Origin: an uncultured delta proteobacterium
GTDB lineage: Bacteria; Desulfobacterota; Desulfobacteria; Desulfobacterales; JAHEIW01
Length of the DNA stretch: 64,000 nt
NCBI GenBank assembly: GCA_963706575.1
Contig: CAVPNL010000006.1
Span: 352,001-416,000, forward strand
Direction: 5' to 3'
Of this stretch, positions 11,295 to 21,758 are shown piece after piece. The notes under the pieces were generated by a model. It did not search any database and had not been told where the DNA came from. It saw only the letters and a program-made list of their open reading frames with translations. Every line of letters starts with the position of its first letter. Position 1 is the stretch's first letter. The position numbers and the translations under genes are program-made.

Positions 11295-12497
11295 ATGAAT
11301 ATGGTTTGGTTTTTTCTCATATTTTTTGCCATTTCCGGTCTGCTGGCAACTTACATCACCTGGCGACTTTTTAGCAAAGCTGCCTTGCGGCGCCGCTGGA
11401 AGATTTTGATTGCACTGGGGATCGTTGTGGCAATGTTTACGCCCGTTTTGACGATTATGCTGCACCGATCCGGATTCGACAACCTGGGCCTCCATCTCCT
11501 CACCTGGGCCGGCTATCTGGCGGTGGGTTTTTTGAGTTTTGTATTTTCCTATTTGGTTATTCGAGATCTGGTGTGGGCGCCGCTTGCCGGGTTTAAGATG
11601 ATTCAGGCGCGGATATCGAAAGCGGCCCCAAACGCTGCAGGATCCCGCCAAATCGACAACCCTTCTCGCAGGGGATTTCTTGTAAACTCAGTAAATTATG
11701 GGGTTGTGGCGGCCGCGGCCCTTTCTACCGGATACGGTATTGCAGAAGCCAAACAGACGCCCCAGGTGAAACACGTGCCGATAAAAATCGACCATTTGCC
11801 GCCGGAACTGGAAGGTTTCAGAATCGTCCAAATCACCGACATCCACGTTAACCCCACTTTTCGACGCGCTGCTGTGGAAGACATCGTGGGTGTGGTGAAC
11901 ACGCTCGATGCCGATATTGTTGTCTTAACCGGCGACCTGGTGGACGGCTCGGTTGCTCAGCTGGGATTTGACGTGGCGCCTTTGAAGCAGATTAACTCGG
12001 TTTCGGGGAATTTTTTTGTTACCGGAAATCACGAATATTATTCCGGTGTGATCGAATGGATCGAAGAAGTCAAGCGCCTGGGCTTCACCGTGCTGTTGAA
12101 TGAACATCAGGTTATTTCCCGCGGCCAGGCCAGAATGGCGCTGGCCGGCGTGACCGACTATCGCGGTGGTAATTTTTTGACCAGTCACCGCTCGGATCCG
12201 CAAAAAGCTTTAAATGGCGCGCCGCCGGCAGACGTTAAAATCCTTTTAGCGCACCAGCCCAAAAATATTTTTGATGCCGCCAAAGCCGGATACGACCTGC
12301 AGATTTCGGGCCATACCCACGGCGGCCAGTTTTTCCCATGGAATTTGCTGGTGGGCTTTGCCCAGCCGTATGTATCCGGTTTGCACACCCACCAAAATAC
12401 CCGGATTTATGTCAGTCGGGGTACCGGTTACTGGGGCCCGCCGTTGCGTGTGGGCTCTCCCTCCGAAATCACCTTAATCAACCTGACTGCCGGCTAG
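11295..12497 (+). CDS. Membrane-anchored metallophosphoesterase (YkuE/YaeI-like)
   Basis: TDIH, TGDLVD, GNHEYY, LAHQP, SGHTHGGQ motifs after N-terminal TM helices. Confidence 0.9.
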   Translation: MNMVWFFLIFFAISGLLATYITWRLFSKAALRRRWKILIALGIVVAMFTPVLTIMLHRSGFDNLGLHLLTWAGYLAVGFLSFVFSYLVIRDLVWAPLAGFKMIQARISKAAPNAAGSRQIDNPSRRGFLVNSVNYGVVAAAALSTGYGIAEAKQTPQVKHVPIKIDHLPPELEGFRIVQITDIHVNPTFRRAAVEDIVGVVNTLDADIVVLTGDLVDGSVAQLGFDVAPLKQINSVSGNFFVTGNHEYYSGVIEWIEEVKRLGFTVLLNEHQVISRGQARMALAGVTDYRGGNFLTSHRSDPQKALNGAPPADVKILLAHQPKNIFDAAKAGYDLQISGHTHGGQFFPWNLLVGFAQPYVSGLHTHQNTRIYVSRGTGYWGPPLRVGSPSEITLINLTAG

Positions 12498-12527
12498 GAC
12501 CCAGCGGCATCGACACCACAACCGCAC

Positions 12528-12986
12528 TTAATTATCCGCTTCGCCCTTCGGTGGTCGGACGACATACACCGAACAGGGAGCATCGCGGATAACCTGTGCA
12601 GTTATATTTTTTTTGAAAAAACGGATCCAACCCTTGCGGTCCCGGGAAGCGATCACGATAACATCCACGCCGAACTGTCTGGCCTTTTCAACGATCACCC
12701 GATAAACGGGAATTCCAGTCACCTGAATTTCTTCGACTGGGATTGAATTTTTTAACGCCATGGGAATCACTTTGGTCAGATCAGCGCGCTCTTTTTTCAT
12801 GAGGTGTTTCTGGACGTCTTCTAAAGATCCGGCCACGATCCGGCCGTGAAGCGGAAATGGCGCTTTGACATGGAGCACATAGAGCCGGGCATTATGTGTT
12901 TGGGCCAGAGATGCCGCGTATCTGGCGGCATACAGCGAGGATTCTGTAAAATCCACCGGGACCATGATATTTTGGATAGGGGTCAT
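12528..12986 (-). CDS. Universal stress protein
   Basis: IMVPVDFTESS, LYVLHV, VIRDAPCSVYVV. Confidence 0.85.
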   Translation of the reverse strand: MTPIQNIMVPVDFTESSLYAARYAASLAQTHNARLYVLHVKAPFPLHGRIVAGSLEDVQKHLMKKERADLTKVIPMALKNSIPVEEIQVTGIPVYRVIVEKARQFGVDVIVIASRDRKGWIRFFKKNITAQVIRDAPCSVYVVRPPKGEADN

Positions 12987-13004
12987 CCCATTCTTTTTTA
13001 ATTG

Positions 13005-13165
13005 ACGATTTGAGTCTTAGGTGTCAATTGGTTAATGGTTATTAGAATTCAATGACAAGCTTATCTTATGTTCCTATAATGGTTGAGATATCAAATTAGA
13101 TATCATTCCTTTTAACGAATAACGAAAAAACGATAACACCCAATTGGATTTTAACTCAATCGGGG
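13005..13165. repeat. GTTATT/AATAAC heptamer inverted-array element, degenerate copy
   Basis: caattggttaatggttatt ... taacgaataacgaaaaaacgataacacccaattg, with flanking ttttaactcaatcg shared with the 29524 element. Confidence 0.5.
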
Positions 13166-13189
13166 TTTTACCGGAAGGTATGATCCGTC

Positions 13190-13975
13190 ATGGACAAAGA
13201 AGACATCAAGAATCTGGCCAAGAACAAAAATTTTATCTCCGGAATTTACAATTATTGTGATCGCTGGTGTGAGCGCTGTCCGTTCACATCTCGCTGCATG
13301 AATTTCGCAATGACCCGGGAGTATTCGGACGATCCTGAAGCCAGTGATATAACCAATGAAAAGTTTTGGCAAAGCCTTTCTGAAATTTTTGAAGTGACGC
13401 GGGAAATGCTGGAAGAATCCGCCGAGGAGATGGGGATAGACCTTGATTCCATCGATTTTGAGGAAACATCCCGGGACGAAGGCGTCAAAGACAAAATAGT
13501 TAAAAACCATGCGTGCTGCCGGGCCGCAGAAAAATATTATGAAATGGTGGACGAATTTTTTGAATCTGAATATATCCCTTCACTGCATCTCGTTGATAAA
13601 TCGGACGGAGGGAATGCACCCAAATTGAAGAAAATCGATATGCTGGATGGGCCGGTCACCCTCGATGAACTGGTAGAAATTATTTACTGGTATCATCATT
13701 TTATTTACGTCAAGCTGATGCGATCTGTTCGAGGCATTCTGGGAGATACATCAGAGATATTGGAAGAATTTCCGAAAGATTCAGATGGCTCTGCCAAAGT
13801 GGCGTTGATTGCCATTGACCGTTCCATGGCGGCCTGGGGACATATGCACAACTATTTTTCTTCTCATCGGGATCAAATTCTCTCGATAATTAAGCACCTT
13901 GACGGTCTTCGCCAAAGGGTGGAGATCGTATTTCCGGAAGCGCGGGATTTTGTTCGCCCCGGATTCGATGAATAA
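13190..13975 (+). CDS. Hypothetical protein with an N-terminal Cys cluster
   Basis: YNYCDRWCERCPFTSRC; otherwise helical and acidic. Confidence 0.75.
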   Translation: MDKEDIKNLAKNKNFISGIYNYCDRWCERCPFTSRCMNFAMTREYSDDPEASDITNEKFWQSLSEIFEVTREMLEESAEEMGIDLDSIDFEETSRDEGVKDKIVKNHACCRAAEKYYEMVDEFFESEYIPSLHLVDKSDGGNAPKLKKIDMLDGPVTLDELVEIIYWYHHFIYVKLMRSVRGILGDTSEILEEFPKDSDGSAKVALIAIDRSMAAWGHMHNYFSSHRDQILSIIKHLDGLRQRVEIVFPEARDFVRPGFDE

Positions 13976-14438
13976 ATTACAGGTCTATACTTGATTCAGC
14001 GATTGTAATGCCAGCTTGCTTGCCTCCGTGCGACTTGCCCCTTATACCGCAATTCCGTAACTGGGAACATTATTATGGCAAGCGGTTTAACCTCGCGGTA
14101 AACATTTCTTTCTGCCAAACAAGAAGTACAAAAAGTGTTAAATTTAGCTGCCAGTTCATCTTTACGTCTTCATTTTTAAACACTCAAAAAAGTATAAAAT
14201 AATGATGCCACCCTTTTTTTTGAAAAAAGATAGACAAAATCGATATGCGGCATTATTTTACTCTAATTTGTTTTGTCTTCGGTTTTCTAATCGTTCTAAT
14301 AATTTCAAAAGTAGACAAAAAATTACATTGCTAATGAACCTTGAAGAAGACTTTCCTTGTTTGGGTTCTTAGGATTTAAAATACCAACTTTTATATAATG
14401 CTTGAGCGATACATACATTTAGTGAAGGAGGTGCAGTT

Positions 14439-15527
14439 ATGAACTTTAAAATAACAGTTTTACCAATGGCGATCGGAATTTTGTTGGTCGGATTATTTGC
14501 CAGCACGCTTCCAGCTGCCGAGATTATCACGGAAACAGATATTGTCGAAAAAGTAGTTCAGAAAGAAGATTTTATACGGACAGCAGACAACTTTATCATT
14601 CTATTCGATTCTTCCAGCTCGATGAAAGAAATTCTTAACAAGAGCACCAGAGAAACAAAATATGATGCCGTCAGAAATATCCTTGAAGAGCGGCAAAAGG
14701 TGCTGCCGGATCTGGGTTACAATGCCGGGTTATACCTCTATACACCCTTTCAAGAGGTCTACCCCATGGGGCCCTATGATCCAGCAAAGTTTGCCGCTGC
14801 CATTGACAGCCTGCCGGCAGAGCCCAAAGGACGAACCCCTTTACCGACCGGAATTCGTGAAATGGGGCCGTTATTGGAAAAGCTGTCCGGTAAAACCGCC
14901 GTGTTCATCTTTAGTGATGGCACTTTCGACCAATTGACGGATTTCAAACTGCCGGAGGATTACACCCGGGAATTTGCCGAACAGCATAATGTTTGTTTCT
15001 ACATGATCAGCAGCGCCACGAAATGGTACGCTGAAAAGCGCTTAGCCGATATGGCAGAGGCCAACGCCTGCTCGCGGGTTATTCCCATAGAGGCATTTAT
15101 CAACAATCCGGAGTACATGGCCGGAGCGTTGTATACGGTCAAGGCATCTGCGTTCGTGGAAACGACCACCGAGGCAAGAATTGCCGGCCTCAAAGCGCAG
15201 GATGGTAATTTTGATTTCAATAAATCCGATATCCGTTCGGAGTTTCAAAGTGAACTGGATGAGGTTGGAACATTTTTGCAGAATCACCCGGATGCTTATG
15301 TTATGCTGGTCGGATACACCGACAGTATCGGAAGCGAAGAATACAATCTGGATCTGTCCCTTCGCAGAGCCAACAGTGCCGCAAATTATTTAACATCCAA
15401 CCACAATATTGATCGGGACCGCATCGTGGTGAACTATTACGGCGAAGCCAATCCGATTGCGAGCAACGATACGGAGGAAGGCCGGTCACAAAACCGGCGC
15501 GTTGAAGTTGCAGTGGGTGGCTTATAA
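14439..15527 (+). CDS. vWA-domain/OmpA-family peptidoglycan-binding protein
   Basis: Signal peptide; MIDAS DSSSSM and FSDG; OmpA C-terminus GYTDSIG...NLDLSLRRA...NRRVE; GGAGG RBS. Confidence 0.9.
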   Translation: MNFKITVLPMAIGILLVGLFASTLPAAEIITETDIVEKVVQKEDFIRTADNFIILFDSSSSMKEILNKSTRETKYDAVRNILEERQKVLPDLGYNAGLYLYTPFQEVYPMGPYDPAKFAAAIDSLPAEPKGRTPLPTGIREMGPLLEKLSGKTAVFIFSDGTFDQLTDFKLPEDYTREFAEQHNVCFYMISSATKWYAEKRLADMAEANACSRVIPIEAFINNPEYMAGALYTVKASAFVETTTEARIAGLKAQDGNFDFNKSDIRSEFQSELDEVGTFLQNHPDAYVMLVGYTDSIGSEEYNLDLSLRRANSAANYLTSNHNIDRDRIVVNYYGEANPIASNDTEEGRSQNRRVEVAVGGL

Positions 15528-15675: not shown

Positions 15676-16029
15676 TCAATCATTCTTTTCGTTACGCTTT
15701 CCCGGCATCACGAAACAAGCGTCATCCAAACGGTTGCAGATATAGGCATTGATGATTTTTTCAAGCTCGCCCGCAATACCGCTAACTAAAGCAATGTTCT
15801 TGCCGGCCAGAAATCTGCACATGACGTCACTGACGCCGGCGCAGATAATTTTGCGAATTCCCCAGCGGGCCATCACCTCAATACGTTCGTGGATGGACAT
15901 TTTTTCAAGGGTCAGCTCCTGTCTGCGGATTTCCTGGCCCTTTTCAATGTCAACGACCACCATACGGTGACATGAGTCCAAAACAGGAGAAACGCGCGAT
16001 TCAAATACCGGAATAGCCACTCTTTCCAT
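15676..16029 (-). CDS. NifB/NifX-family (dinitrogenase FeMo-cofactor-binding fold) protein
   Basis: RVAIPVFESRVSPVLD...IICAGVS...GIAGE pattern, 117 aa. Confidence 0.8.
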   Translation of the reverse strand: MERVAIPVFESRVSPVLDSCHRMVVVDIEKGQEIRRQELTLEKMSIHERIEVMARWGIRKIICAGVSDVMCRFLAGKNIALVSGIAGELEKIINAYICNRLDDACFVMPGKRNEKND

Positions 16030-16994
16030 TATTCAGTTTCAAACGCGTGATGTTCGTGATCCTCACAACCGCAGGTGGATGCGAGTTCAGATTTTAAATC
16101 AGCATGTGCAAGGTCCCACCAGAGGGAATTGATGACAACTTGCGGAAGTTCGTCTGCCGCAACGTGGTCGCAAGCCGAATGCGAGCATGCGTGTTCAAAA
16201 ACGATCTTTTCTTCGGGATCCAAATGCGCGCGCCAGTTCATATCGACCAGGTCCCCGGTATCGGTTGCGTTTGAAAACAGCACGCTTGTTGAGTACTGCT
16301 GAGTTTCATCGCTAACCCAACTCTCCGAGGTTTGATGGGTATCGACAATACATTCAAACCCCGGAGATCGGGTTGCGCCGATAAATGCGGGTGACTGTTT
16401 TGAATAAAACGCATACAGGCTGATCAAGCGGTCAAACAGGGGATAGCCGATCTGCCAGGCGGGTATATTGCGAATGACGCTTTTTCCATGGGCATCATTC
16501 AGACCATTTCGTTGACCGGTTTTTACGGTTATCATCGACCACTTCAGGAAATCGAGACTGTCAAATGTAAGCATCGCAACGGTTTCGGCAGCATTTAACA
16601 TAAACGATAGGCTGCCAACCGTAAAAAATGTCTCGGGTACACGCTGCCTGGCTTCCAGCCGGGGGGTATGGGTGTGGTCGAACAGTTCACCGGTGACCAT
16701 TTCCCGTTCCTGGGGGGAAAAGGAATCAAACACACTGGCTGTGACATAGGGATAGCATTTGACCACAAACTGTCCCACATTCAGGGTTTGGTCTGTGGCT
16801 GCGGTGGTTCCGCCCTCCTCAAAGACCAGAGCATAAACCCCCGGAGCACCGTCAATCCAGATATACCACTCCGGTCGGTCGCCCCAGACCTGGCTGACAC
16901 CCGTAAGGTCGAGCATTTTTTGGACCTGCTCAACCCAGGAAGCGCTAATCAACATGCTTTCAACCTTATTGCGAAAAAAGCTGTCAAAATCCAT
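16029..16994 (-). CDS. Hypothetical protein with a Cys/His-rich C-terminus
   Basis: Start MDFDSFF overlaps the upstream gene end; tail HACSHSACDH...CGCEDHEHH; stop overlaps the next ATG. Confidence 0.7.
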   Translation of the reverse strand: MDFDSFFRNKVESMLISASWVEQVQKMLDLTGVSQVWGDRPEWYIWIDGAPGVYALVFEEGGTTAATDQTLNVGQFVVKCYPYVTASVFDSFSPQEREMVTGELFDHTHTPRLEARQRVPETFFTVGSLSFMLNAAETVAMLTFDSLDFLKWSMITVKTGQRNGLNDAHGKSVIRNIPAWQIGYPLFDRLISLYAFYSKQSPAFIGATRSPGFECIVDTHQTSESWVSDETQQYSTSVLFSNATDTGDLVDMNWRAHLDPEEKIVFEHACSHSACDHVAADELPQVVINSLWWDLAHADLKSELASTCGCEDHEHHAFETE

Positions 16995-17268
16995 ACGCTT
17001 CACCACCGTGCTTTTTGAAAAGCTCCTTGACGATTTCGTTTTTTTCGCGCCCTTCGGTTTCGATGCCGTGCTGCCGGGCGGTTTCCAATAAAAGATCATC
17101 CGGATAGGCAAGGGTTAGCGCATAACTGGAATCGTAAGTTTCAAAATAACGGTCAAAAGCGCTTTCCTGCTCAACTTCCTGCACGCCTTCCTGGAAACCG
17201 GAAACAATTTCTCCCACCTGGCGCAGCCAACCGCGCCTGAAAAAAAAACGTTTGTTTTGATCAACCAT
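16984..17268 (-). CDS. Small hypothetical protein
   Basis: GGAG RBS before MVDQNKRFFF; tightly packed between its neighbours. Confidence 0.7.
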   Translation of the reverse strand: MVDQNKRFFFRRGWLRQVGEIVSGFQEGVQEVEQESAFDRYFETYDSSYALTLAYPDDLLLETARQHGIETEGREKNEIVKELFKKHGGEAYGF

Positions 17269-17269
17269 T

Positions 17270-18496
17270 TTAATCTCCATGCTTTCTCAAGGGCCAACCT
17301 TCGAAAAAGTCACTCTGAATCATGATGATACTCAAAAACAACAGGATCCAAACCAGCGGTGTATCTCCTGGTTGAGCGACACCGGGCACTTTGGCCAGGA
17401 AAAATGTGGCCAGGGGCGAATAATAGAAAGCATAAAACAATAGCCCGCCGGCGATGGCGATAGCGGTGCGAATGATCGCACGGGCCCAGATATTGGCCAT
17501 ATTGGGAAAATTGCCAAAATAATTCTCGAGAATAAATGCGGCCAAAATGAAAAAGCCGGCCATTTCACCGGCATGGATAAACCGAAAATCGGGCCCATCG
17601 GTGTATTGACCGCCCATAAACGGTTCATCCCAGACCACGGTAAAGATTTTCAACAGGATCCACATCATAATTAATCCCATGATGAGCGTGGCCGCAAAGG
17701 TGACAATCCCTTTGGCGAAGGTGCCTTCGCCGTTCTTGTTCATCAGCTTCCAGGGATTGCCTTCCCAGAGCTTATCCGAGGCCACAATCCAGAATAAAGA
17801 AGACAGCACCAGCCCCAGTCCGACAAAAGCACTGCCGGTCTCACAAAATCCTTCCCACCAGGGTGACACGCCGGCTTTGGATTGGGCCGGATAGAATAAA
17901 TGACACACATGGGGATGGAATAAGATGATGTAAATGAGGCTGGCAAAAAACAGAATGGCAAACAGACGCGACCACGCCAGAGCGCCGCGCCCCACATTTT
18001 GCCAGGGCCAGCTCCCAAAGCCCAGATTCCAAAAGAGCGCGATCCACAGAAAGGCGGTAAAGAAATAGACAATTGCCGTCGAGGCGTTTTCACGCGCTAC
18101 GAACGGCTCGGCCCCGATGCCCCCCGATGCGACAATGGACTGGGGGCTGAAATAGGCGACGCCCAGTTTTCCGATAAAATACCAGAATATCACATAATGG
18201 ATAAACAGCATCAGAATGAAGGCCACCACGGTCAACAAAATACCACGGCCGACCCGGTTGCCGCCAGCCGAGGGTTCCGTAAAAGGAAAATAGCCGGCAA
18301 CATTGGCGATCAGCACAATCGACGATACCAGCACCACCAGCAAGGCAAAACCATACATGGGGGTGTAAAGCTTCATGACCGTGTTCGGATTCATAAATAT
18401 GTACCACAAAAACCATACAATCCCGAACACCACCACAAAATTAATGAGCCCAAATGGATAATTAAATTTTTTCTCTGCGTTTATTGCGGTATTCAT
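17270..18496 (-). CDS. Polytopic membrane protein, putative transporter
   Basis: About 10 hydrophobic helices with a recurring aromatic-Pro motif; AGGTGA RBS before MNTAIN. Confidence 0.75.
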   Translation of the reverse strand: MNTAINAEKKFNYPFGLINFVVVFGIVWFLWYIFMNPNTVMKLYTPMYGFALLVVLVSSIVLIANVAGYFPFTEPSAGGNRVGRGILLTVVAFILMLFIHYVIFWYFIGKLGVAYFSPQSIVASGGIGAEPFVARENASTAIVYFFTAFLWIALFWNLGFGSWPWQNVGRGALAWSRLFAILFFASLIYIILFHPHVCHLFYPAQSKAGVSPWWEGFCETGSAFVGLGLVLSSLFWIVASDKLWEGNPWKLMNKNGEGTFAKGIVTFAATLIMGLIMMWILLKIFTVVWDEPFMGGQYTDGPDFRFIHAGEMAGFFILAAFILENYFGNFPNMANIWARAIIRTAIAIAGGLLFYAFYYSPLATFFLAKVPGVAQPGDTPLVWILLFLSIIMIQSDFFEGWPLRKHGD

Positions 18497-18592
18497 ATGA
18501 TCACCTATGAATTGTGTTGATGGTAATGAAGAGAAAAGAAACCGCAGTGCCATGCTCCTTTTCTCTTCGCTTCATACGGTGCATGGGATCGT

Positions 18593-19699
18593 TTAAAAGA
18601 CTATATGATCTCCGTTGGTCAGAAAGGCGTTGCTGGCCGTGGCGACGGTAGAGGTTCGCTTGTATTCCTTATATTTATCCGTGCCTTTAACCACCGGCAC
18701 ACCGGCGGCGGCGGCCTTCTCGGCCCATATCCAACCGGTGCAGTGATTGCATGCCAGCTTCTTAATCTTGAATGACTTGACGCCTTTGATGATATCATCG
18801 AATTTGGGCTCCCAGGTTTCAAACAGGGTAATGTGCAGACCGCCATAGCAGCCGTAGGGCTCGTAGCCTTTAAAGTTTTTGCGCGCATATGAGAACAGGG
18901 AAAGGATGCCCGGATGGCAGCATCCGGTGACCGTCACGATTCCTTTATCCTTGACATTGAAATACAAAACATTCTCTCCGCGCACCCGCAACAAAATGGG
19001 GACATCAAACATTCTTGTCGCTACACCGGGCATCAGGCGATAAATGCCCTCGCCTTTTTCACCGGCCGGGTCGCAAAGCACCAATTTGCCCGTATGAGGA
19101 TAATCATTTTTGGCAACGTGTATCATTTCCCCGGTATCTTTGTCCTTGGCTTTGTGGTGAGCCTTTTCTTTTAAAAGCGCCATGTCTTCAGGGTAATAGG
19201 TTTTGGGCGCGTACATGGTGATATCCTGTTTGTGCTTGAGGGTTGATTCGATGCCCCATGTATGGTCCAGATGCCAATGAGAGAGGACAAATGTTTCAAT
19301 TTCGCCTTTTTTGAGCATATTGGCGATATCGTTTTTTTCTTCAAAGATATAGTCCATCCAATCGTTGCTCCATCCGGAGTCCATCAAAATCTTGCGCTCG
19401 TTGCCCTCCAGGGTCGTTACCGTAATCAAGGCCGCATAGCCGCCCGTATTGTCAACGTCCCATGGGATGGTATACTGGTTGGTCATGGCACCGCCGTAAT
19501 CCATCATGTTTTTTTTGAGGATGTCATTATTAAACCAGCTGGTCTCGGACAGGACATCGATGCGTACGCTTTTGATTTCACCGATATCGACTTTTTTAGC
19601 GGCATGCGCCTTACGCGGCAGCATGAAATTGGCCGCACTGCCCACCGAGGCCGCAGCGCCGGTGGCGGCAATTGATTTTAAAAAGGTTCTTCGTTTCAT
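18593..19699 (-). CDS. Tat-exported metallo-beta-lactamase-fold hydrolase (COG1237-like)
   Basis: MKRRTFLK...AHA Tat signal; MDSG, SHWHLDH, TGCCHPG, GGLH, CNHCTG motifs; AGGAGG RBS. Confidence 0.85.
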   Translation of the reverse strand: MKRRTFLKSIAATGAAASVGSAANFMLPRKAHAAKKVDIGEIKSVRIDVLSETSWFNNDILKKNMMDYGGAMTNQYTIPWDVDNTGGYAALITVTTLEGNERKILMDSGWSNDWMDYIFEEKNDIANMLKKGEIETFVLSHWHLDHTWGIESTLKHKQDITMYAPKTYYPEDMALLKEKAHHKAKDKDTGEMIHVAKNDYPHTGKLVLCDPAGEKGEGIYRLMPGVATRMFDVPILLRVRGENVLYFNVKDKGIVTVTGCCHPGILSLFSYARKNFKGYEPYGCYGGLHITLFETWEPKFDDIIKGVKSFKIKKLACNHCTGWIWAEKAAAAGVPVVKGTDKYKEYKRTSTVATASNAFLTNGDHIVF

Positions 19700-19742
19700 T
19701 CGTGCTCCTCCTTATGGTTGGATAATTTAAAGAACAGACCGT

Positions 19743-20093
19743 TTAACCGGCTTCCCTTTCAAGTCCTTTGCGCAGATCGTAGAGCAAGTCGATGATCAGC
19801 TCGCTCTCTTCCATGGAGATGTCCAAACCGTAGCCGTGCATCACATTGACCACCAGATGCCAGTCGTCGCGGGTTCGTCCCGGTTGTTCCGGATTGGCGA
19901 CCGAGTCATGGCAACCCGTGCATTTTTGCTGATAAACTTTGTAAGCTTTGATTCGATCCATGCTTTTGGATTTGGCCTTTTCTCCGGCCACCACGCTCGG
20001 GCTCTGAATAACGAGCAGCACGCCCATTGCGCAGATCAAACAAACGGTCAGCAACCAAAAACGTTTAGATGTGAATAACTTTTTGTTAAGCAA
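19743..20093 (-). CDS. Small monoheme c-type cytochrome
   Basis: Signal peptide; single CTGCH; distal Met candidate in WHLVVNVMH. Confidence 0.8.
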   Translation of the reverse strand: MLNKKLFTSKRFWLLTVCLICAMGVLLVIQSPSVVAGEKAKSKSMDRIKAYKVYQQKCTGCHDSVANPEQPGRTRDDWHLVVNVMHGYGLDISMEESELIIDLLYDLRKGLEREAG

Positions 20094-20224
20094 CCTGAGC
20101 CCCCTTTCTGCTAAATGGTTGGCAATAATGCAGGTGATTCGAACATGGCACCGAGATAAACGCAGTAAACGCGAAAAATCCCCTTTTTTCCGAACCCCCC
20201 ACCTCTTTTTGCGACCTTATTGTG

Positions 20225-20240
20225 GCAATAACCATGCCAG
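20225..20240 (-). promoter_or_regulatory. Sigma-54 (-24/-12) promoter of the cytochrome c/MBL operon
   Basis: Minus strand CTGGCAT-GGTTA-TTGC, matching TGGCAY-N5-TTGC. Confidence 0.85.
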
Positions 20241-20313
20241 CAATCAGGCAAGGCAGTAAGTCGCTAATTTTATAGGAGATACGCACTTTCCCGTAATAAT
20301 TTAGATTGACATA

Positions 20314-20383
20314 TGGAACAAAATGCCCTATGAGGGAACAAAACGAATCCATTCTATAAGAATTAAGGGAACAATTCTCACCC
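20314..20383. promoter_or_regulatory. Three candidate 17-bp activator binding sites (UAS)
   Basis: TGGAACAAAATGCCCTA (20314), GGGAACAAAACGAATCC (20334), GGGAACAATTCTCACCC (20367), 75-145 bp upstream of the sigma-54 promoter. Confidence 0.55.
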
Positions 20384-20411
20384 TCTTTATGTTTTAAAAA
20401 GGAGTGCGGAA

Positions 20412-21758
20412 ATGGATACCCCCGGCCCCTCCAGGCATACGGATTACCAATCCATCCTGAACAGCATCACCGACGGTGTGCTCACCGTTGATCGTGATAT
20501 GATTATCACTTCTTTTAATCGGGCAGCCGAGAAAATCACTCAGGTGAAGCAGGCAGAGGCGATCGGCCGGCATTGCTTTGAAGTCATGCGGGCGGATGTC
20601 TGCGAGTCCGGCTGCCCGATCCAAAAAACGTTTAAGACCGGAAAGCCATGCCGAAACATACCCGTTTTTATCGTGCGTGCCGACAATAAACGCATTCCTA
20701 TCAGCGTAACGACCGGTATTGTGCGGGATGATAAAGGGAGTTTGATCGGGGGCGTGGAAACATTTCGCGATTTATCAGAGCTGAATAAACTTCGCCGCGA
20801 AATTTATAAAAAGCACTCGTTCGAAGATATTGTCAGCAAAAATCATAAGATGCTGCAGTTATTTGCAATTCTGCCGCAGGTGGCCGAGAGCCACAGCACA
20901 CTCCTGATTGAGGGGGCCAGCGGTACCGGAAAAGAGTTGTTTGCCAGAGCCATTCACAATAACAGCCCGAGGCGCGAGGAACCCTTTATGGCAGTAAATT
21001 GCGGCGCATTGCCGGATACGCTGATCGAATCGGAGCTTTTCGGTTACCAGGCCGGTGCATTCACAGATGCCAAACATAATAAACCGGGTCGCTTTGCTCT
21101 GGTCCAAAATGGAACGATTTTTTTGGACGAAATCGGCGATATTTCAACTGCCATGCAGATGCGTCTGCTGCGAGTTTTGGAAAACCGCACGTTTTCGCCT
21201 CTGGGTGCTACGGCGACGTTGCGGATGAAAGCCCGGGTGATCGTCGCCACCCATCGGAATCTTAAAGAAATGATCGGCGAAGGCCAATTTCGTGAAGATT
21301 TGTATTTCCGGATCAATGTTGTACGTTTGTGGTTACCACCGCTGATCGAACGCAAAGAAGATATTCCGCTGCTGGTGGATCACTTCATCGAGCGCTTTAA
21401 CACCATAACCGGCAAACAAATTGTCGGAATATCTCAGGATGCCCTGGCGGCTTTGACGCTTTATGATTGGCCGGGTAACGTGCGCGAGTTGGAAAATGCC
21501 ATCGAACATGCATTTGTTTTGTGCCTCAACGGTATGATTCGCCTGGAACATCTGCCCGAACAGATCCAACCCCGGAGAGAGCCGCTCTACGTGCCTATCG
21601 AAACATCACTCAAGGCCATCGAAAAGCAAGCCATCATTCGTGCATTGACCAAAAACAACTGGCGCAAAATGGCCACCGCCCGTGAGCTGGAGATTGATAA
21701 AAATACCTTGCGCCGCAAAATCCAGCGCTACGACATCCGGATGCCAACTCACCCTTAG
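20412..21758 (+). CDS. PAS-domain sigma-54-dependent activator (OrpR-like)
   Basis: PAS with CFEVMRADVCESGC (Cx8Cx3C); GASGTGKE, GAFTDA, FLDEIG, WPGNVRELEN; Fis-type HTH. Confidence 0.9.
   Translation: MDTPGPSRHTDYQSILNSITDGVLTVDRDMIITSFNRAAEKITQVKQAEAIGRHCFEVMRADVCESGCPIQKTFKTGKPCRNIPVFIVRADNKRIPISVTTGIVRDDKGSLIGGVETFRDLSELNKLRREIYKKHSFEDIVSKNHKMLQLFAILPQVAESHSTLLIEGASGTGKELFARAIHNNSPRREEPFMAVNCGALPDTLIESELFGYQAGAFTDAKHNKPGRFALVQNGTIFLDEIGDISTAMQMRLLRVLENRTFSPLGATATLRMKARVIVATHRNLKEMIGEGQFREDLYFRINVVRLWLPPLIERKEDIPLLVDHFIERFNTITGKQIVGISQDALAALTLYDWPGNVRELENAIEHAFVLCLNGMIRLEHLPEQIQPRREPLYVPIETSLKAIEKQAIIRALTKNNWRKMATARELEIDKNTLRRKIQRYDIRMPTHP

Follow-up and report, generated by a model that had tools for sequence, protein, structure and literature searches.

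Layout and conservation of the locus

The window analysed here is a stretch of 64,000 nucleotides from an uncultured delta proteobacterium (positions 352,001 to 416,000 of contig CAVPNL010000006.1). The system in question is a predicted operon of six minus-strand genes with a divergent activator gene, in which an enzyme of the metallo-beta-lactamase (MBL) fold, carrying a twin-arginine translocation (Tat) signal, is encoded beside a membrane protein with ten transmembrane (TM) helices. In window coordinates, the genes and sites are as follows.

20412..21758, plus strand: OrpR-like sigma-54 activator, PAS-AAA+-HTH (Pfam), part of an accessory regulatory cassette, with C55, E57, C64 and C68 as a predicted iron-sulfur (Fe-S) redox sensor
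20367..20383, no strand: predicted distal binding site of the activator, an imperfect palindrome of 17 bp with an 11/17 match to the OrpR box
20334..20350, no strand: predicted proximal binding site of the activator, an imperfect palindrome of 17 bp with a 12/17 match to the OrpR box
20225..20239, minus strand: predicted sigma-54 (-24/-12) promoter, TGGCAT-N5-TTGC, from a pattern match and conservation across loci
19743..20093, minus strand: monoheme cytochrome c with an N-terminal hydrophobic segment, CxxCH and a conserved Met; clade-specific and dedicated to this operon
18593..19699, minus strand: MBL-fold metalloenzyme (COG1237/Tflp type) with a Tat signal, in which four Cys close to the metal motifs are conserved; core
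17270..18496, minus strand: 10-TM membrane protein with five helical-hairpin repeats, predicted channel or permease; core
16984..17268, minus strand: 94-residue (94-aa) protein that starts with a (K/R)RxF motif but lacks a hydrophobic segment, putative export or assembly chaperone; near-core
16029..16994, minus strand: 321-residue alpha/beta Cys/His protein with a C-terminal STCGC and His tail, putative metal-loading factor; core
15676..16029, minus strand: NifX/Orp-like small protein that co-occurs with the OrpR-like activator (Pfam, NCBIfam, locus counts)

The six co-oriented genes and the divergent activator lie where the initial annotation had placed them, and the last four genes do abut or overlap: the membrane and 94-aa genes are 1 bp apart, followed by overlaps of 11 bp (94-aa and Cys/His genes) and 1 bp (Cys/His and NifX-like genes). 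The two upstream gaps are 43 bp (cytochrome to MBL) and 96 bp (MBL to membrane gene). The starts of the membrane, 94-aa and Cys/His genes were refined from relatives to ATG codons at 18496, 17268 and 16994, respectively, which gives the membrane protein 408 residues, the same length as in its closest relatives. The GC content of the operon is 49% (48% for the genome). A scan of the locus for terminators and sigma-70 promoters gave results at chance level. As for RNA, three sediment metatranscriptomes contained 5-6% of the words; short RNA contigs of relatives span most genes, one of them bridging the cytochrome and MBL genes (19415-19988), but these are strandless, imply no single transcript and are not used as evidence.

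The motifs of this MBL are carried by about 650 genome stretches of a one-genome-per-species collection, and the best 80 of these loci formed a first set. Adding distant genome loci and 80 metagenome loci gave an enlarged set of 176, from which the counts below are taken on the 99 loci with at least 3.5 kb on both sides, near-identical strains included (the other 77 were left out for short flanks). Among the best 80 loci, the order cytochrome, MBL, membrane protein, 94-aa protein, Cys/His protein is kept in Desulfobacterales, Desulfomonilales, Syntrophales, Desulfarculaceae, Anaeromyxobacter, Rhodospirillaceae and Nitrospirota records. In the loci of this first set with enough flank, the membrane gene is present in 75/75, the Cys/His gene in 66/67, the 94-aa gene in 61/70, the cytochrome in 49/71, the NifX-like gene in 27/65 and the divergent activator in 26/62. 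The corresponding numbers for the 99 loci are 99 (membrane protein), 95 (Cys/His), 70 (94-aa), 37 (cytochrome) and 26 (NifX-like), and CobW, GntR, ExbB and Fur genes occur at 23, 16, 14 and 6 loci, respectively. Across these 99 loci the core genes are found in several gene orders, and the tree distances of the MBL and the membrane protein correlate with r 0.88 (72 sequences), a value inflated by shared ancestry.

The six genes fall into three layers: a four-gene core, a clade-specific cytochrome and a regulatory cassette that includes the NifX-like gene. Co-conservation, for which the initial annotation had proposed a gene-neighbourhood search, thus holds for four genes and not for six, and the idea of a single indivisible six-gene unit is rejected. 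The cytochrome (C58-x2-C61-H62, conserved M85), which proved to be monoheme as annotated, is absent from 62/99 loci, is limited to one subtree and never accompanies the CobW form described below. It is found in 12 of 201 genomes of the order, in each of the 12 about 1-2.5 kb from the membrane gene; it is a clade add-on, yet dedicated to this operon where present.

The module is hosted by sulfate reducers, syntrophs and other anaerobes, one of them with a 1.6-Mb genome; Desulfosarcina widdelii (L052) is a carrier in culture. Its distribution is patchy, since the membrane gene was not found in the four same-genus genomes searched (two of them 97% complete). A 300-genome sample of the phylum of G301 contained no further membrane gene (1/301). 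One metagenome clade (L229-L231, L249, L251, L256, L262, L264, L266 and L271-L273) has the order 94-aa protein, Cys/His protein, MBL, membrane protein, tat genes, with a signalling gene and then exbB-exbD-tonB downstream in several of its loci. The exbBD-tonB genes, with no receptor gene, also lie downstream of the CobW fusion in L030, L034, L261 and L276. The window's own downstream neighbours are a universal stress protein, a membrane-bound metallophosphoesterase carrying an internal RRGFL motif (11295-12497), a Cys-rich protein of no assigned function (13190-13975) and a vWA-OmpA protein (14439-15527); at other loci, none of the neighbours at 11295-15527 recurs next to the operon.

The core proteins

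The nearest solved relatives of the MBL are Tflp (2p4z), 7dck and Tm1679 (3h3e), and the protein shows the features of the COG1237/Tflp type, namely HxHxDH, a Cys in motif 4, GGxH and HC after motif 5. All predicted metal ligands are invariant in 72/72 sequences, the invariant positions being E52, D107, H141, H143, D145, H146, E242, C260, H262, H289, H319 and C320. These positions would suit the di-iron or Fe-S centre expected of this type. C261 and C317 are each kept in 71/72, and since no sequence has lost both, paired loss is not indicated. A cytoplasmic-type COG1237 paralogue encoded on contig C15 is only 23% identical to the window MBL. The antibiotic class B beta-lactamases were rejected as an assignment, the curated models giving 24.2 bits (cut-off 100) and 16.8 bits (cut-off 200). 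The predicted Tat export is supported by TIGR01409 (19.7 bits, cut-off 16.7), by an RRxFLK motif with a hydrophobic region and by RRxF[LIVM] in 66/72 MBLs; tatC is directly downstream in 12 metagenome loci, all of one clade. The Tat pathway exports folded, cofactor-loaded proteins.

Regarding the membrane protein, no Pfam or NCBIfam family scored above cut-off, and the Atlas gave matches to unnamed clusters only. The AlphaFold2 (AF2) model (pLDDT 86.6) has ten long helices, in keeping with the roughly ten TM segments first annotated, and the sequence contains a five-fold repeat of segments ending in W/F-P, for which 6 of 15 segment pairs reach an HH probability of 70-93% with scores of 24-36, against at most 13 for column-shuffled controls. 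Foldseek and VIA-align found no clear fold match for the model, which does not prove a new fold. The top structural neighbour, a designed barrel with 5 inner helices (Z 7.7, rmsd 6.0, 213 aligned), is in the chance range for helical bundles. Comparison with NrfD/PsrC or cytochrome b anchors returned non-significant rows only (8k9e_C, E 0.24, TM 0.13), and comparison with the APC fold no significant structural match of any kind. JGI labels some relatives "AAT family amino acid transporter", which is unsupported here, with no match to a permease model in Pfam or NCBIfam. The initial suggestion of a probable transporter is supported. In G733, G914, G916, L045 and L095 the membrane gene is split into at least two frames or partly matched, which may reflect frameshift, assembly error or decay.

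A sister clade of the membrane protein, about 23-28% identical, occurs with no MBL. At 11 of its 15 loci, genes for acyl-CoA synthetase, CoA-transferase, thiolase, dehydrogenase or B12 mutase lie within 4 kb, compared with 15% of random places in this genome; the corresponding binomial P of 7e-7 overstates the case, as the 15 loci include close kin. DUF294 genes also belong to this context. The position of the sister-clade gene is presumably that of a short-chain carboxylate permease such as AtoE or ActP, and judging by this gene context the clade is a candidate undescribed short-chain fatty acid permease family. H308, E311 and R343 are common to both clades. The sister-clade membrane proteins at L035-L038, L155-L160 and L162-L166 have His-rich C-termini.

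Co-folding of the MBL with the membrane protein, which the initial annotation had proposed, gave an ipSAE of 0.47 against 0.00 for the best control, with at least 85% of contacts agreeing between runs and partner pLDDT of at least 82. The docking mark was reached by 116/157 solved complexes and 2/215 mismatches, and at ipSAE of 0.60 or below there are 18 solved complexes only, plus both mismatches. The predicted docking is thus a weak pass. Memory of a known complex is unlikely, because the searches turned up no solved structure related to the membrane protein.

As for the Cys/His and 94-aa proteins, no Pfam or NCBIfam family scored above cut-off for either, and the Atlas had no match for the former. 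The Cys/His model (pLDDT 87.3) has a best Z of 4.7 with weak helix-grip-like rows in Foldseek and VIA-align; this is no clear fold match and not proof of novelty. In distant relatives, at 23 loci, the Cys/His domain also forms the N-terminal half of proteins of 600-650 residues whose C-terminal half is a COG0523 GTPase: CobW/CobW_C is fused to it in 6/6 long forms scanned, and GCVCC is intact in 7/7. CobW is near the MBL in 23/99 loci. Among 112 full-length stand-alone relatives, 105 end in [ST]CGC and 64 have at least three His; we take this tail to resemble the nickel motif of HypB. The window protein, with no Pfam match, has no P-loop G domain with CxCC, the GTPase being confined to the fused relatives. 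There is no need for a separate CobW working in trans, as G304 has the operon and a best PF02492 match of only E 3.5e-20. In the window's genome (G000), contig C6 has three COG0523-like GTPase genes in a stretch of about 23 kb (684-707 kb), surrounded by corrinoid and methyltransferase-like genes, and none is fused to a Cys/His domain.

COG0523 proteins hand metal to client enzymes, e.g., Fe nitrile hydratase, according to PMC11672702. Metal loading of the MBL is for this reason the simplest role for the Cys/His protein, which alternatively might receive imported metal. The dedicated metal maturation expected by the initial annotation is supported with a different candidate; the NifX-like gene, which tracks the regulator, is weak evidence for it. 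The 94-aa protein combines a twin-arginine-like N-terminal motif with the lack of a hydrophobic stretch and may act as an escort or decoy during export.

Regulation and the NifX-like partner

The divergent PAS-AAA+-HTH activator carries the Cys motif that had been recognised as that of OrpR. The motif is present in 30/31 divergent activators, and the remaining one is truncated by a contig end. C55, C64, C68 and E57 correspond to C52, C61, C65 and D/E54 of OrpR as given in PMC8359166. OrpR-type activators bind a redox-sensitive [4Fe-4S] cluster, and the window activator may do so too. The sigma-54 match is by itself within chance, since 41/100 shuffles of the window also yield one. What upholds the promoter is its conservation: the strict pattern is upstream in 16/31 loci with a divergent activator versus 4/42 without, and a -24/-12-like site, located with a matrix trained on the strict-pattern cases, aligns in 32/32 intergenic regions examined. 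Two 17-bp palindromes 30-34 bp apart are present in 30/32 of these regions. In the window they are about 111-112 bp and 144-145 bp upstream of the -24 element, and their pair is the best in the genome, scoring 43.5 versus 20.8 for the runner-up with a box matrix seeded from the window and later rebuilt leaving it out.

With motif, boxes and promoter conserved, the initial claim that an OrpR-type regulatory module has been reused for another cargo is well supported at this locus. Across copies of the core, however, OrpR-type control is only one of several kinds: GntR/FCD regulators, whose weak best matches are NanR, LldR and PdhR, are near 16/99 loci, Fur near 6/99 and Rrf2 near one clade.

The NifX-like match is weak but real (PF02579 at E 9e-4, below cut-off; MrpORP C-terminus at E 8e-8), and the gene's identity stands as first given. 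Of 57 loci where both could be judged, 23 have the activator and the NifX-like gene, 34 have neither and none is discordant, although kin among them are not independent. In orp-type clusters, and also next to unrelated cargo, the same NifX-like subfamily adjoins OrpR-like activators; the tree shows the pair attached to the core in more than one place. Because the two are never separate, serve other cargo and have several attachments in the tree, they are interpreted as a mobile regulatory cassette. A role of the NifX-like protein as the enzyme's own maturation factor is rejected, since the gene tracks the regulator rather than the enzyme. An OrpR-like activator with a divergent NifX-like gene stands beside other cargo in L179, L180, L183 and L188, the cargo in L183 being a multiheme cytochrome.

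The orp ATPases (Fe-S MinD-like) are, as annotated, absent at this locus, but the genome does have them on contig C11, where an orp-like cluster at about 47.5-51.2 kb contains two such ATPases and NifX-like genes with no adjoining OrpR gene. A box-like 17-mer upstream of that cluster matches the new consensus at 13/17 positions, so the window activator might act there too. A second PAS activator with related Cys spacing, on contig C15 (320258-321622), is unlinked to the operon.

Mechanism, rival readings and known systems

In the reading preferred here, the Cys/His protein likely loads a metal, probably iron and partly Cys-bound, into the MBL in the cytoplasm. The MBL is predicted to exit folded via Tat, putatively escorted by the 94-aa protein, and then to dock on the 10-TM protein. 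The docked enzyme likely cleaves an outside compound, and the resulting small carboxylate would be taken up through the membrane protein. The OrpR-like activator, which forms a cassette with the NifX-like protein that some lineages have acquired, likely confines expression to reducing conditions and would in this way protect an oxygen-sensitive metal centre. The cytochrome c would be an optional partner keeping this centre in a working oxidation state. The architecture alone, i.e., an MBL that is matured, exported and coupled to a membrane protein, is probable. The whole chain with hydrolysis and carboxylate uptake is tentative and falls short of an even chance. The boldest form, an undescribed transporter fold in which a single-chain pseudo-pentameric barrel is capped by a Tat-exported Fe/Cys MBL that feeds the pore and owes its maturation to a new metallochaperone domain, acting alone or together with a COG0523 GTPase, is conceivable but rather unlikely.

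Several observations weigh against hydrolysis followed by carboxylate uptake. A Pfam scan of 92 flanking proteins revealed no recurring catabolic partner, and acyl-CoA genes are near only 8/95 loci of the MBL-bearing clade, below the 15% background. The cargo of the sister clade may differ, given its low identity and its lack of H194, H196, Q205 and R305, all conserved in the MBL clade; E136, likewise conserved there, is not kept. A dedicated cytochrome (12/12) is unusual for a plain hydrolase, and Tflp is described in PMC7785958 as an iron-dependent oxidoreductase. Single hints at the substrate come from neighbouring genes: one resembling 3-hydroxybutyrate dehydrogenase, immediately 5' of the MBL in L028, speaks for a carboxylate, as do the GntR/FCD regulators and the sister-clade context; L282 has genes for lactate utilisation and TRAP transport nearby, and L026 carries one that is LarA-like.

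A close rival, nearly as likely as the carboxylate reading, is a periplasmic redox enzyme, in which the MBL would have a Tflp-like iron or Fe-S centre on the four Cys and oxidise or reduce a small substrate. At loci that have the cytochrome c it would receive the electrons, at the remaining loci other carriers would, and the membrane protein would anchor the MBL and move substrate or product. This is favoured by the cytochrome always adjoining the membrane gene (12/12), by the two further Cys conserved in 71/72 and by recurring regulators of redox or metal type (OrpR-like, Fur, Rrf2). It is also favoured by neighbouring genes: orp ATPases are immediately 3' of the MBL in L240 and L246, iscS/iscU follow the operon in L072, L074 and L076, and a Rieske gene and a cytochrome b gene are downstream of it in L117. 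The same Cys ligands, however, are present in 7dck, which we take to be a phosphodiesterase, and the sister clade of the membrane protein works without any MBL. For Tflp itself, PMC7785958 reports two Cys ligands, matching C260 and C320, and an Fe-S centre under reducing conditions. The pairing of the exported MBL with an electron carrier, as initially annotated, holds where the cytochrome is present. Obligatory coupling through it is not supported, given its absence from 62/99 loci, including all 23 CobW loci and the top-ranked genome match, L039, whose MBL is 90% identical, and its restriction to one subtree. If the cytochrome does take electrons, this would be a redox-coupled enzyme-channel of a kind absent from the literature searched.

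Scavenging of a metal or cofactor is unlikely. Here a TonB-imported chelate or cofactor would be cleaved in the periplasm, and the membrane protein would pass the metal or fragment to the Cys/His-CobW protein. It would account for exbB within 7 kb in 14/99 loci of two separate clades, with exbD and tonB adjoining, for the Fur (6/99) and CobW (23/99) genes, for the conserved H194, H196, E136, H308 and E311 of the membrane protein and for a TonB-dependent receptor that L228 has at a distance of about 5 kb. Against it, no TonB gene adjoins the operon in the clade of the window, no receptor recurs inside the operon at any of the loci, the sister clade's neighbours are carboxylate-activating enzymes, and an activator expected to be active at low redox potential would be a poor fit to metal starvation. 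It is very improbable that the system extends the Orp metal-sulfur machinery and that the Orp complex has the MBL as its exported client or product. Some copies are flanked by orp ATPases, CGGC proteins, OrpR-like activators and members of the NifX-like subfamily, and one orp-like cluster (L199) contains a COG1237-like MBL (22%), which points this way, but NifX-like genes are near 26/99 loci only, whole clades are under other regulators and the orp ATPases of this genome are on another contig.

In agreement with the initial annotation, which had recognised no characterised pathway, the literature searched contained no description of this gene set, although subscription papers and supplements may contain one. 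Pfam has no family for three of the four core proteins, and for two of them the structure searches gave no clear match. The atoDAEB (AtoE) and acs-actP operons serve short-chain fatty acid uptake, and the sister clade, not the window's clade, occupies the same permease slot beside CoA-transferase, thiolase and acyl-CoA synthetase. Unlike AtoE and ActP, the membrane protein has a five-repeat 10-TM build with no sequence or structural match to a known permease, and the window's clade lacks the acyl-CoA gene context. The membrane protein would represent a candidate new family of carboxylate channels with two clades.

With Tflp, 7dck and Tm1679 (PMC7785958), the window MBL shares HxHxDH, the motif-4 Cys (GCxH), GGxH and HCTG with the extra Cys. 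Unlike these COG1237-type proteins, it bears a Tat signal, two additional conserved Cys and a SETSWF motif, is longer by about 80 residues and has a fixed membrane partner. According to PMC11672702, Fe nitrile hydratase with Nha3 likewise places a CxCC-bearing G3E GTPase beside a Cys-ligated metalloenzyme, as in the 23/99 loci. The GTPase here, unlike Nha3, sits behind a fused 300-residue domain with no family or fold match, which in the window stands alone with a CGC/His tail, and the presumed client is exported. Few bacterial clients of COG0523 chaperones are known according to the same source (PMC11672702), and the MBL is a candidate for one.

As for the regulator, OrpR of Desulfovibrio vulgaris Hildenborough has in common with the window activator PAS-AAA+-HTH, Cx8Cx3C and an acidic residue at +2 (PMC8359166). 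The orp operons share the divergent sigma-54 promoter, 17-bp palindromic boxes and the NifX-like gene (PMC8359166, PMC3897727). In contrast to them, the window's cargo is an exported enzyme with a membrane protein and helpers, and the locus has no orp ATPases; both boxes are in tandem ahead of one operon with a differing consensus, and most copies of the core are under other regulators. With its predicted binding site, the locus would be an OrpR target of a second kind, and the small NifX-like protein may assist the sensor. Exported cofactor enzymes that come with a permease and their own maturation factors are known as a general plan; the parts seen here are not. New here are the Cys/His-COG0523 fusion, the five internal repeats, the acyl-CoA context of the sister clade and the predicted, weakly passing docking of the enzyme on its membrane partner.

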